Part shown: positions 39,801-53,186 of the stretch, piece after piece
Numbering within the stretch: position 1 is the stretch's first letter
Layout: each line of letters opens with the position of its first letter
Source of the DNA: Dictyostelium discoideum
Lineage: Eukaryota
Direction: 5' to 3'
Assembly: GCA_000004695.1 (NCBI GenBank)
Contig: CM000150.2
Coordinates: forward strand, 2,336,001-2,400,000
DNA: 64,000 nucleotides
Notes under the pieces: model-generated
Database searches by the model: none
What the model saw: only the letters and a program-made list of their open reading frames with translations
Told to the model about the DNA's origin: nothing
Made by a program: the position numbers and the translations under genes

Positions 39801-42800
39801 TTTTTGCTATTATCATTATGGTTACTTGAACCACCACCTCCACCACCTGGGACATAAGTAAAGGAAGATACTGAAGGTACATTAAAATATTTCTTATCGA
39901 AATTTTCATTATTCCATTCGAGATCTTCAATGTTTTCATTATCTTCTTCATTATTATTATTATTGTCATCATGATATTCTTCACCATTATCATTATTATT
40001 ATTATAACTTTTATTATAATATCCATTATATTCGTTGTTATAATTATAGCTTTCACCATTATCATTATAATTGTACCCATCATTTTCGTAGTTATAACAA
40101 TCACCATTATAATTTTCATTGTTGTTATTATTATTATAATCACCATTGTAACCATCACCATTATAATTTTCATTATTATTATTATTATTATTATTATTAT
40201 TATTATTATTATTATTATTATTATTATTATTATTATTATTATTATTATTATTATTACTATTATTATTATCAATATAATCACTGTCATTATAATCACCATT
40301 ATAACCATCTTTATTGTAGACATCATCGTTATTATAATCATCATTATTATTATAATCACCACCATAATTATAATTATAACTACCATCATTATTATTGTTG
40401 TTATCATTATCGGTGTAATTATCATTATAATTTTCATTATTATAATCACCACCATCATTATTATTATAACTATCATCATTATTATTGTTATCATTATCGG
40501 TGTAATTATCATTATAATTTTCATTATTATAACTACCATCATTATAACCATCATCTTTGTAATTATCATTGTAATTATCATTATTATTATTATTATTATT
40601 ATTATTATTATTATTATTATTATTATTATTATTATTATTATTATTATTATTATTATAATTATTATTGTCATCATTATTATCGTTTTCATCGTTATTATCA
40701 TCATCATCATCATTATCAAGGTGATAAAAACTATTACTATTATAGCCACCACCTGGAACATAGGTGAAAGAGGTTACAGTTGGTACTTTGAATTTAGCTT
40801 TATCGATATCATCATTGTTGTTAATGCTCTTTTTGTTATTTTTATTATTATTATTATTGTTGTTGTTATTATTATTATTCTTATTATTATTACTATTATT
40901 ACTATTATTAATAATTTCTCTATTATTTTCTTTTTTATTAATAATGTTTTCTCTATTTAAACTATTTCTACTTAAAATTGAATAACTTGAATAATCATTT
41001 TGATATTTTTTAATCAATAAATAAATTTCATTAAAACTTGAACGAGAAATGAGTGAAACATCTTCATGAGTTTTTGGTAAAGTTAAAGTTGGAATTGAAA
41101 TATTTGTTTTACCACTTCTACGATAGTTAAACTCTTTAGTATATTCAGTGAATTTATGGTTAGAGAAATCTTGGAATAATAATTTTCTAGATCTTTGATG
41201 TTGAATTAGTTGTTCCAAGATTGAATAATATTGATCGGTATCATTTTCACTCTCTAAAATTTCTTTAAGAAGTAATCTTTGATAACAATGACTAGTTTCA
41301 ATTAAAATCTTAAAAGATAATATTTTTTGGTAAATATCCTCACATAAATCATCATTGGTTTTAATCATTGATTTAATTGAAACTAAATATTTGTTTGCTA
41401 ATTTAATCTTCTTTTCTAATCTATCACGACTTGATTCAATGGTTTGTCTTACTAAATGTAAATTTCTATAATGTTGTGGATAACTCTTTAACATTTCATC
41501 AATTGTTAATATAATTTCATCAACTGAATTTGATTTTAAAAATATAGTTTTTAAAATAAAATTAACATGTGGTGCAACTTTAACACCATTAGTTGGTAAA
41601 ATTTGAATTGATGATGTTGTTGTTGGTGATGATGACGAAATTTGCATTGGTGGAAATGATGAAAAAATACTATTATTATTATTTTTATTATTATTATTTG
41701 ATAATGATGATGACAATGTTGATGAAATTGATGGTGAATTTGTACCACCTTGACTATAACAATTAACTGCATAAGCAATATCTTCAAAATAAGAAGCTAT
41801 AACAGTTTTAATATCAACAGTAAGGAATTTAAAAATTGGTATATTAATACGCTCACCAAAATCAGTTAAAGAAATACTCTTTGGAAGGAAACGAGTAACA
41901 TCACCATTGATCATATAAGAGGTACCAATATAAGGTTGATGAATATTATTTAAACGATCGAAAAGTTGTTGCCATTTACGTTTTAATGTCGAACTTTTAT
42001 CTTTGGTACTATAAGATTTTAAAGCGCTTCTTTGAGTGAAATTACTAAAATCCAATAGAATTCTAGCGGAATTACAAAGGTTTGTAATCTCCAAGAATCC
42101 AATTGGATTAACATCTTCAACGATAATCCTTTGTAAATCTCTATGAGTTTTTGCTCTATTTGTTTGAACCTTTTGAGAGAAAGAATCTTGAGTACCTCCT
42201 ATTAAAATTGAGGAAACCAATTGTAAACGATTTTCATGTTCTGGGAATCTTGTAATTAAAAGATTTATAGCTGCAACAATTGTACTAATATCAGTTGTAT
42301 CTCTAAATGCTTCTTTTAAAATTCCACATGAATTACTTGAATGAAGTGAATTAATTTGATTAATATGTTGTTTTTTTAATTCACCTGGTAAAATATTATT
42401 TCTTAATGACATTTTATTTTCAAAATATTGATCATTATTTTGATTATTATCACCTTCACTACCATTATAATTATTATTATTATTATTATTATCATCATAA
42501 TCTTCAATATCTTCATTATTATTATTCATACATTCATCAAATACTAATCTTGGTGATAATTGACTATAAAGTTCACGAATTTCATTAAAAATATGATTAA
42601 TGAAAATTGATAAAGATTCATCATAAATTTTAAAGTTTCTGATTACAATCTTTTTATCATTGAGACCAGAGAAAATGAAATCTTTAATTAGATTGACATT
42701 GGTATCAACCGTTGCAGACATTTCCAAATATCTACTAATATCCAAGATTTGTTTTGAATGAACATTATTTAATCTTCTACTGACATCACTTTCATCGACT

Positions 42801-51059: not shown

Positions 51060-53186
51060 TTACTCTTTTAACTTTTGAGGTGAAGGTAATGAAGATGATA
51101 AAGAAGTAGAAGAAAATGAATAAGATGGTTGAACTATAATCTTTGGTTCTATTCTATTTGATTGTACAGGGTTAACAATAATTTCATTTTGATTATTATT
51201 ATTATTATTATTATTATTATTATTATTATTATTATTATTATTATTATTATTATTATTATTATTATTATTATTATTATTATTATTATTATTATTATTATTA
51301 ATAATATTATTATTATTAATACTATTATTATTATTATTATTATTATTATTATTATTATTATTATTATTATTATTATTATTATTATTATTATTATTATTAT
51401 TATTATTATTATTATCTAAATCACTAATAGCAAATGATGGTTTAGTTTTAATTTTAATTTGTTTATTTTTTTGAACTAATTGATAAACTTGATTAAACAA
51501 TGATTGAATTACATCAGAGATATCATTATCAATTATTAATGATGACGACAAAGAAGATGAAGATGAAGATGAAGATGAAGAAGAAGAAGAAGAAAAAGAA
51601 GATTGATCATTGATATTTGAATCAAAGGTTGAATTATTATTATTATTATTATTAGAAGTAATAGAAGCATATGAAAATGGTGAAGGTACTAATTTAAATA
51701 TTGGTATTGTAAAAGATTGACCATCAATAATGAAAATAAAATTCTTTGCAATTTTATTGAATCTTGAGAAATCACGTTTTGCAATATCATAGATATAAAG
51801 TGGAAAAGAATTATGAAATATACTTAGATCATTCATTCTCTTGGTTTGAATTTGTGGTGATTGTTGTCTATGAATTGGATGTTCTTTTAAAAGTTTTCTT
51901 TGATACATGAAATTGAATTCAACGATTAATCTCAACTCTAAATATTTTGAATACAACTCACTCTCCAAAATTGCCTGTCTATCCTTGATTATAGTTTCTT
52001 CCATTATCAATTTTATTGCATTCTTTTTGATGGTTTCAATCTTTACATCAATACCTTTTTGACTATCTCTACTTAACATTAGCTCTTTTATAATGGTTAA
52101 ACTATTCTTATAACTTGGATAACTTTTTATTAATCCATCAACTGTATTCACAATCTTACAAATATCAATTGATTTAAATATTGTTATGAATATATTATTA
52201 TCAATTATATTTGTTATATTATTTTGTTGTTGTGGCAGTGGTTGTGGTGGTGGTGATGATGATAGTAATTGTGATGGTGAAATACTATTATTATTATTAT
52301 TATTTGATATTAATTTAAATTGTGTAGTATTATTATTATTATTACTATCAACCTGTTGAAGATATTGAGTTGATTTTGGTGGAGATAAATCAATATTAAG
52401 AGGTGATGATGATGATGATGATGACGATGAAGATGATGATGGTGGTGTTGTTGTTGTAATGGTAGTAGAATTAACACTAACATTTTGTAGATCTTGAGGT
52501 ACATTGGAATGATGTAAATGATGATGTTTTGTTATCTTTTGAATTTCATAATAGTTTGATAGGATTGCATGATTAATATCCTCATCATTACCTAATTTAA
52601 ATGATGGTACCACTATTGTTTGGTTATTCATAACTTTGAAAGCAAATGAACTGAACATCTTTGCGTATCTCCTACTATAATCTTTATACACCATATCAAT
52701 GAATGATAATGGTGCTGAATTATGATAAGAACTAAGTTGTTGTAATTGTTGTTGTAGCTGTTGTTGCTGTTGTTGTTGTTGTTGTTGTTGTTGTTGTTGT
52801 TGTTGTTGTTGTTGTTGTTGTTGTTGTAGAAGCTGTGATTGTTGAAGCTGTTGTTGCTGTTGTTTAAATAAATCTTTTAAAAATTTTCGTTGAAATTGAT
52901 TACTAAATTCAATCATTGATCTTAATGAAATGTATAAATCCAATGCTTGATTTTCAATTGGTTTGATAGTGTTATTGATATTATTTTTATTATAGTTTTC
53001 AATATCAATATTCATTGAAATGAAATCTTTAGTTGCCATACTTTTTATCTTTTCCATTTTTTCTTCAAACTTTGCTCTCTCTCTATCTGATATTAATGAT
53101 TTACCCATTGATGATATTATTTTATTTATTTCAATTTTAAATACTCCATTGGTTATTTGGTTATTATTAATATTATTGTTAAACAT
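51060..53186 (-). CDS. Paralog with two copies of the repeat module plus polyQ, polyS and polyN (708 aa)
   Basis: ...ISLRSMIEFSNQFQRKFLKDLF..., ITIFKSIDICKIVNTVDGLIKSYPSYKNSLTIIKELMLSRDSQKGIDVKIETIKKNAIKLI...LRLIVEFNFMYQRKLLKE...FTIPIFKL..SDVIQSLFNQVYQL. The C-terminal NNQNEIIVNPVQSNRIEPKI is near-identical to a segment of the giant protein. Confidence 0.7.
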   Translation of the reverse strand: MFNNNINNNQITNGVFKIEINKIISSMGKSLISDRERAKFEEKMEKIKSMATKDFISMNIDIENYNKNNINNTIKPIENQALDLYISLRSMIEFSNQFQRKFLKDLFKQQQQQLQQSQLLQQQQQQQQQQQQQQQQQQQQQQQLQQQLQQLSSYHNSAPLSFIDMVYKDYSRRYAKMFSSFAFKVMNNQTIVVPSFKLGNDEDINHAILSNYYEIQKITKHHHLHHSNVPQDLQNVSVNSTTITTTTPPSSSSSSSSSSSSPLNIDLSPPKSTQYLQQVDSNNNNNTTQFKLISNNNNNNSISPSQLLSSSPPPQPLPQQQNNITNIIDNNIFITIFKSIDICKIVNTVDGLIKSYPSYKNSLTIIKELMLSRDSQKGIDVKIETIKKNAIKLIMEETIIKDRQAILESELYSKYLELRLIVEFNFMYQRKLLKEHPIHRQQSPQIQTKRMNDLSIFHNSFPLYIYDIAKRDFSRFNKIAKNFIFIIDGQSFTIPIFKLVPSPFSYASITSNNNNNNNSTFDSNINDQSSFSSSSSSSSSSSSSSLSSSLIIDNDISDVIQSLFNQVYQLVQKNKQIKIKTKPSFAISDLDNNNNNNNNNNNNNNNNNNNNNNNNNNNNNNSINNNNIINNNNNNNNNNNNNNNNNNNNNNNNNNNNNNNNNNNNQNEIIVNPVQSNRIEPKIIVQPSYSFSSTSLSSSLPSPQKLKE

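Follow-up and report, generated by a model that had tools for sequence, protein, structure and literature searches.

RNA helicases and RNA-tailing nucleotidyltransferases (NTases) work together in RNA quality control and transposon silencing, where the pairings described elsewhere consist of separate proteins. TRAMP combines the non-canonical poly(A) polymerase Trf4/5 with the Mtr4 helicase and the adaptor Air1/2, MOV10 acts with TUT4/TUT7 on LINE-1 mRNA, and RDRC of Schizosaccharomyces pombe consists of the Hrr1 helicase, the Cid12 NTase and Rdp1. Recruitment usually falls to accessory regions of Upf1-like helicases and to proteins that partner non-canonical poly(A)/U polymerases, as illustrated by the Upf1 CH domain (with Upf2), the N-terminus of Sen1 and, in TRAMP, Air1/2. 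In a 64-kb stretch of Dictyostelium discoideum DNA (contig CM000150.2; hereafter the window), a giant gene encodes a helicase and an NTase that, unlike those of TRAMP, are fused in one polypeptide. They are preceded by nine copies of a repeat module that is apparently an undescribed domain family, with three more copies encoded upstream.

The repeat module and its predicted fold

Positions are numbered on the whole 64-kb window; G, A and B denote open reading frames (ORFs), and G1–G9, A1, B1 and B2 the module copies (Table 1). The module set was defined by alignment of hand-cut segments, followed by a profile scan. An earlier note, made from the sequence alone, had described nine copies in the giant gene and three upstream, in tandem on the minus strand, and this layout was confirmed: the six-frame profile scan of the whole window returned exactly these 12 copies and no 13th. 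By pairwise BLASTP the 12 copies are 20–38% identical, with expectation values (E) down to 8e-32. In leave-one-out tests each copy was found at 65–153 bits by a profile built from the other 11, and a profile of G1–G9 only detected A1, B1 and B2 at 62, 78 and 127 bits, while the highest of 3000 shuffled sequences reached 5.8 bits against the G1–G9 profile. The similarity between copies therefore stands under statistical test.

The motif blocks listed in the earlier note correspond to the conserved columns of the module alignment, which are ILKxIF, YP, IKxNA, R..IEFSxxYQRKxLKE, FHN, FxF..IxIPxFK, EDIS and SLFxEI. Its length estimate of ~170 amino acids (aa) was too short, as modules without inserts measure about 190–215 aa (205–213 profile positions). 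B1, which had been called partial, does lack the helix with the YP motif, but its end is not truncated. A divergent subtype (FKFGGE..) comprises G4 and A1 of the window and the modules U4, U6 and G4 of Dictyostelium purpureum. The linkers between modules are polyglutamine/proline (polyQ/P), polyasparagine (polyN), poly-acidic, polyserine (polyS) or polythreonine.

Table 1. Positions of the ORFs, module copies and other features of the locus.
Feature	Position	Strand	Remarks
ORF G	35552..49174	-	4540 aa, 13.6-kb ORF, 9 modules
ORF A	49670..50935	-	421 aa, 1 module
ORF B	51060..53186	-	708 aa, 2 modules
Module G1	48527..49171	-	profile scan; aa 2-216 of ORF G
Module G2	47252..47878	-	profile scan; aa 433-641; preceded by long polyQ/P linker
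Module G3	46562..47170	-	profile scan; aa 669-871
Module G4	45755..46402	-	profile scan; aa 925-1140
Module G5	44351..45013	-	profile scan; aa 1388-1608
Module G6	43538..44170	-	profile scan; aa 1669-1879; copy used for AlphaFold2 model
Module G7	42515..43180	-	profile scan; aa 1999-2220
Module G8	41699..42340	-	profile scan; aa 2279-2492
Module G9	40961..41569	-	profile scan; aa 2536-2738
Module A1	50072..50935	-	G4 subtype; polyN and polyS inserts
Module B1	52482..53174	-	first module of upstream gene; polyQ insert; without YP helix
Module B2	51393..52211	-	Ser/Asn-rich insert before last helix
N/D/Y-rich low-complexity spacer, array to helicase	39410..40786	-	aa 2797-3255 of ORF G
Sen1/Upf1-like superfamily 1 helicase region	37133..39313	-	aa 3288-4014, conserved with orthologs
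AAA_11/AAA_12 Pfam core	37373-38509	-	aa 3556-3934
Cid1/TUT4/GLD2-type non-canonical NTase region	35594..36781	-	aa 4132-4527; MTPAP-like palm aa 4216-4341
Predicted intron, B to A	50952..51063	-	112 nt, GTAAGA...TTTTAG, 92% A+T
Heptad-like segment NRKKNEQLLQEIEKLKEQINNLKKEGEELE after A1	49766..49897	-	kept after D. purpureum module U6

An AlphaFold2 model of G6, for which the input alignment was the 12 window copies alone, has a confidence (pLDDT) of 86.5 and a predicted TM-score (pTM) of 0.86, and all five models reached at least 83.5. It starts with a short helix (ILKxIF), two helices flanking YP and a helix with IKxNA. A 31-residue helix carrying R..IEFxxYQRxxLKE occupies the centre. Next comes a helix with FHN at its end, then a beta hairpin (FxF / IxIPxFK), and the chain finishes with a long helix at the C-terminus (EDIS..F.EI). 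As predicted, then, the module is a genuine, independently folding domain of ~200 residues, with six main helices around the long central one. Its conserved positions form mainly the hydrophobic core, together with a polar stripe (K58, K63, R95, E99, Q105, R106, K110, K172, E177 and D178), and no invariant residue set of catalytic type is present in the conserved columns of the alignment.

The earlier note did not recognise the module as any named domain, and this was borne out in Pfam-A, in the PDB sequences and in Foldseek searches of PDB and BFVD. The module regions of the three window proteins have no match in Pfam-A (2025 copy), and when 31 modules were scanned singly against Pfam-A at E ≤ 1, no family was matched by more than one of them. 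All PDB sequences, compared with the module profiles, gave nothing significant; the structure searches likewise gave no significant match, the best Foldseek E-values being 0.92 in PDB and 1.1 in BFVD. A TFIIA match on one module (E 6e-6) falls on a polyQ insert. HEPN domains, four-helix bundles with an Rx4-6H motif, were also considered and rejected: no HEPN-family Pfam match was obtained, and before the sole conserved His (column 134, 68%) the positions -4 to -6 are occupied by N, D or L, with no conserved Arg. A HEPN survey names Dictyostelium only for sacsin and C6orf70 (PMC3710099).

Word-indexed searches with the 12- and 31-module alignments gave no match; they also missed the D. purpureum relative seen by the full HMMER search (below), so these negatives carry little weight alone. 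When metagenomes were scanned with the best-conserved module core, no relative emerged. An exact-sequence look-up of the products of ORFs G, A and B returned no match, which fits either the corrected gene model for B and A given below or a collection that lacks the source proteome, and literature searches on Dictyostelium helicases, NTases, terminal uridylyltransferases (TUTases) and Sen1 yielded no description of this gene or domain.

The giant protein and the upstream gene

Between the array and the helicase, the low-complexity spacer holds five (S/P)F(T/I)YVPG motifs (aa 2803, 3105, 3164, 3200 and 3249). In D. purpureum the corresponding region instead contains roughly twelve G.Y(V/I)EG(F/Y)Y repeats, and a third ortholog, from genome assembly GCA_054859325.1 (locus L002), has almost no spacer ahead of the helicase. 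The spacer motifs may be short linear motifs or mere Tyr-rich low complexity.

The helicase is matched by AAA_11 (E 1.6e-45) and AAA_12 (E 4.1e-56) of Pfam, and its closest structures are Sen1 (E 5e-64) and Upf1 (E 2e-59). The motifs GPPGTGKT, DEATQ, QYRMH, FQGSEKD and RRINVSITRAK, which include motifs I, II and VI, are intact, and the protein has the features of the DNA2/NAM7 (Upf1-like) group of superfamily 1 (SF1) helicases. Of the typical accessory domains of such helicases, neither the Sen1 N-terminal domain (PF12726) nor the Upf1 CH domain was found in the giant protein at E ≤ 0.1. The NTase matches MTPAP-like_central (E 1.3e-18, Pfam) and, across the palm and the following helical domain, the structures of TUT4, GLD2, URT1 and Cid1, with E down to 1.7e-28 (TUT4). 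Its motifs GSF..G, SDIDV and RFDMCF (the GS/DxD/D residues) are intact and it shows the characters of the Cid1/TUTase family; the PAP_assoc Pfam model is matched only in the L002 ortholog. With these motifs preserved in helicase and transferase alike, both enzymes are presumably active. Four further ORFs (39748..40761(-), 39971..40960(+), 47881..48504(+) and 47960..48463(+), of 337, 329, 207 and 167 aa) lie across ORF G where it encodes low-complexity repeats, and were set aside as almost certain artefacts of codon-repeat sequence.

Upstream of the giant gene, ORFs B and A had been taken for two tandem genes; they are most likely two exons of a single spliced gene encoding a three-module protein of 1134 aa. 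The stop codon of ORF B sits inside the donor of the predicted intron, GA/GTAAGA (slashes mark splice sites), the TTTTAG acceptor (50953-50952) lies 16 nt upstream of the ORF A ATG, and splicing keeps the frame (...KLKE/SDQVIMDILNFIF). An annotated intron of D. purpureum is found at the homologous ...LKE/ place and in the same phase (...SLKE/GTAAGT...AACAG/NDSLLNLFKQLF). The overlap of donor and stop codon, the preserved frame and the homologous intron all argue for one B+A gene, and the locus would therefore hold two genes, not three. Splicing of ORF A to ORF G was rejected, as an in-frame TAA occurs at 49204-49202 and the sequence from this stop to the ATG at 49174 contains no AG. The heptad-like segment after A1, with which the B+A protein ends, weakly matches Seryl_tRNA_N of Pfam in its coiled-coil arm and is probably a coiled coil.

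The two genes share a segment of 199 nt at 96% identity, situated in the G6–G7 linker (43291-43489) and at the 3′ end of exon B (51137-51335). It encodes polyN and NQNEIIVNP(I/V)QSNR(K/I)EPKI, although identity between the adjacent modules is only ~33%. Gene conversion or duplication appears to have taken place recently between the B+A gene and the giant gene.

The window has a G+C content of 15–33% and encodes polyQ/polyN-rich proteins, the nearest relatives of which are in D. purpureum. Its other genes include one of ComC type, a Rab GTPase and ELP6. Immediately downstream of the giant gene, identical tRNA genes form two inverted pairs, tRNA-Glu(UUC) at 30881-31007 / 32293-32419 and tRNA-Gln(UUG) at 34120-34219 / 34996-35095, with arms that are 93–94% complementary; the 32–34 kb region between the pairs has the highest G+C of the window (0.33) and no ORF of note. 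The intergenic region upstream of the B+A gene holds a tRNA-Asn(GUU) gene (54364-54438, minus strand); one for tRNA-Lys(UUU) follows at 62343-62417 (plus strand).

Relatives and evolution of the array

A full HMMER search with the module profile, run against 1.84 billion representative proteins, returned two relatives (P0001 and P0002). This number is a lower bound, because the search did not list the giant orthologs themselves. P0001 is a D. purpureum gene product (E 6e-249) of 1899 aa with seven modules. Directly downstream, on the same strand, is a giant gene with at least eight modules followed by the helicase, where the available locus ends. P0002 comes from L002, in a genome of 23% G+C, and lies just upstream of an ORF of 2318 aa that encodes four modules, AAA_11/AAA_12, an MTPAP-like/TUTase domain and PAP_assoc. 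P0002 itself consists of module fragments, and one of them shares 91% identity with the fourth module over the N-terminal half of the latter; P0002 may represent a pseudogene or an imperfectly modelled gene. A 90-aa MTPAP-like fragment was seen upstream of the D. purpureum locus (L001 2114-2383).

Best reciprocal matches between the window and D. purpureum are collinear: G1–G6 pair with G1–G6, G8 with G7, and G9 with G8, and in the upstream gene B1 pairs with U1 and B2 with U2. G9 of the window also pairs with the last module of L002 (G4), and G7 is the only window copy without a one-to-one partner in D. purpureum. Orthologous modules are 28–38% identical, the best-conserved pair being B2/U2 at 57%, compared with 51–55% for the helicase region and 42% for the transferase. 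The giant genes differ in module number (nine in the window, at least eight in D. purpureum, four in L002), and fragmentary copies are found upstream in L002. L002 modules G1 and G2 arose by recent tandem duplication (740 nt at 85% nucleotide identity) and have a dN/dS ratio of 0.66, the only pair for which it was measurable. This duplicate and the P0002 fragments were noted at L002 9911-11181 and 12087-13680. Linkers are beyond alignment between species, while the modules stay full-length and intact. Judging by these comparisons, the array is ancient within the D. discoideum/D. purpureum clade and has been kept intact, given the collinear orthology, the full-length module at every position and the unalignable linkers; it is also fast-evolving, given the low identity of orthologous modules and the dN/dS value.

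The helicase-transferase fusion is more widespread than the module. Its best matches are four dictyostelid proteins of 1251–1572 aa with the same fusion (P0003–P0006, E 1e-107 to 8e-175), two from Acytostelium subglobosum and one each from Heterostelium album and Polysphondylium violaceum; beyond dictyostelids, the matches are plant Sen1-like helicases of the MAGATAMA3 type, without the transferase. No module was detected in the four proteins, nor in the 10-kb flanks on each side of the P. violaceum, H. album and A. subglobosum genes, where the best module match had an E-value of 0.08. In these species the helicase-transferase genes are tandemly amplified: P. violaceum (locus L003) has a run of at least five NTase genes, of which two also encode the helicase, and H. 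album (L004) and A. subglobosum (L005) have two adjacent helicase-transferase copies each. The P. violaceum protein P0006 carries its own threefold repeat of ~170–180 aa at the N-terminus (aa 1-560; L003 10001-11700), in which the segment (Y/L)QR(V)...(Y)QN resembles YQRK...FHN by eye. Kinship to the module was not significant (hhalign P 0.11–0.12), and an AlphaFold2 model of the repeat was unusable (pLDDT 55). On this distribution, the module is an innovation of the D. discoideum/D. purpureum clade, or has diverged beyond recognition there, and was joined onto a pre-existing dictyostelid helicase-transferase fusion.

Proposed function and comparison with known systems

A function can be inferred for the module domain. 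The array would serve the helicase-tailing enzyme as a multivalent arm, an adaptor or scaffold, with the module-only protein as its companion, a reading to which we give a probability of about 0.45. The module originated in one dictyostelid lineage, and tandem duplication multiplied it before the D. discoideum-like and D. purpureum lineages split. Set on low-complexity linkers, the copies form a non-catalytic N-terminal arm of the fusion of a Sen1/Upf1-like 5′-3′ helicase with a Cid1/TUT-type terminal nucleotidyltransferase, in which each module would act as a separate helical-bundle binding unit and the array as a multivalent whole, tethering the enzyme to ribonucleoprotein (RNP) or protein targets. 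The B+A protein, with three modules and the coiled coil, could be a free-standing partner or a competitor for the same ligands. The suggestion of the earlier note that the modules deliver substrates or partners to the helicase-NTase is plausible in this respect, as it fits the conserved architecture and the module-only companion gene, with binding and ligands as its conjectural part.

The adaptor reading is suggested by the conserved architecture and synteny, by modules that stay intact while the linkers dissolve, by the non-catalytic pattern of conservation and by the precedent of recruitment in related enzymes. Other observations weigh against it. Constraint on the modules is weak, as judged from the identity of orthologous copies and the dN/dS value, and a loosely constrained spacer would fit these figures equally well. 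Furthermore, the helicase-NTase orthologs of P. violaceum, H. album and A. subglobosum lack the module, which is therefore not essential to the enzyme core.

Somewhat unlikely, in our estimate, is that the modules are RNA-binding domains and give the array multivalent affinity for long or structured RNA, as the zinc knuckles of Air1/2 do. Both downstream enzymes have RNA as substrate, 24 of the 31 modules are basic (pI 8.3–9.7), and the conserved polar positions are mostly basic (K9, K42, K58, K63, R95, R106, K110 and K172). A basic pI is nevertheless weak evidence in AT-rich dictyostelid genomes, which make proteins lysine-rich generally. Several other modules are neutral or acidic, and both G1 and its ortholog in D. 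purpureum (L001 16517-17107) are strongly acidic (pI 4.8), so that this character is position-specific and kept across species. No known RNA-binding fold or motif was detected in the sequence and structure searches of the modules.

The modules could instead be self-associating units. Together with the polyQ, polyN and Tyr-rich linkers, they would then drive oligomerisation or the formation of condensates (RNA granules), the B+A protein co-assembling through its modules and coiled coil. The extremely long low-complexity linkers, the Tyr-rich spacer, the conserved coiled-coil-like segment of the companion protein and the opposite charges of the first and the later modules are in keeping with this, but such linkers are common in genomes of this kind and are not conserved between species. 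The strong divergence of paralogous modules also argues against a single shared homotypic interface, and the explanation is considered unlikely.

The locus has several traits that resemble those of conflict genes, namely fast evolution, change of copy number, ongoing conversion and tandem amplification of the enzyme family. It is conceivable, if decidedly unlikely, that the fusion is a dictyostelid-specific machine for RNA surveillance or genome defence, in which the fast-evolving array of a novel recognition domain, variable in copy number, would direct the Sen1-like helicase and terminal uridylyl/adenylyl-transferase to foreign or selfish RNAs and the module-only protein would be a decoy or co-receptor. 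The targets might be, for example, retrotransposon transcripts or RNPs, and by analogy the protein would be a speculative single-polypeptide counterpart of the MOV10–TUT4/7 or RDRC pair, with a recognition fold unique to it.

Several of the same traits would follow if the array were weakly constrained filler, an orphan domain able to fold that slippage or unequal crossing-over had multiplied and that now serves at most as a spacer without a specific ligand: the modules diverge fast, as the recent duplicate of L002 illustrates, their number varies between species, the 199-nt segment indicates ongoing conversion or duplication, and related enzymes do without them. However, module order has remained collinear though the helicase cores are only ~55% identical, and over the 13.6-kb ORF every copy is full-length, with the same core residues and without stops or frameshifts, while the linkers cannot be aligned. 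Filler is considered very unlikely. Just as unlikely is that the module belongs, in highly diverged form, to a domain family described before, for which it can be said that helical bundles are often hard to classify and that the structure searches covered PDB and BFVD only.

If the module is a binding unit as proposed for the adaptor arm, it represents a new protein domain family with a fold unmatched by solved structures, and the locus shows how, in one lineage, a fused RNA helicase and RNA-tailing enzyme acquired an arm for target selection. If it is only a loosely constrained spacer, the locus still illustrates the birth and amplification of an orphan domain. In either case, an unannotated protein of 4540 aa from a tractable model amoeba gains a handle in the form of 12 bounded domains, a predicted fold and a corrected gene model.

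The orphan domain is what is new here; the combination of a helicase with a non-canonical nucleotidyltransferase is itself known as a kind of machine. Strings of helical-bundle adaptor domains, such as the talin rod bundles, FAT, alpha-catenin and the THATCH domain of HIP1R, are among the closest systems for the array. The fusion proteins of the other dictyostelids share the helicase-NTase core and the tandem gene arrays and differ in having no detectable module. With TRAMP and Sen1-dependent nuclear RNA surveillance the fusion shares the grouping of an RNA helicase, a nucleotidyltransferase of Cid1/Trf4 type and a non-catalytic, putatively recruiting arm. The dictyostelid helicase is of the SF1 Sen1/Upf1-like type, whereas Mtr4 of TRAMP belongs to superfamily 2, and the putative adaptor consists of nine orphan helical domains where TRAMP uses zinc knuckles. 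MOV10–TUT4/7 and RDRC similarly pair a Upf1-like SF1 helicase with a Cid1-family NTase, in those cases for the silencing of selfish RNA. By sequence, Sen1 and plant MAGATAMA3 are closer to the dictyostelid helicase than MOV10-type proteins are; the locus has no RNA-dependent RNA polymerase, unlike RDRC, and a link to transposons is speculative. With these differences, the dictyostelid fusion would be a 'Rosetta-stone' version of the MOV10–TUT4/7 or RDRC pair.

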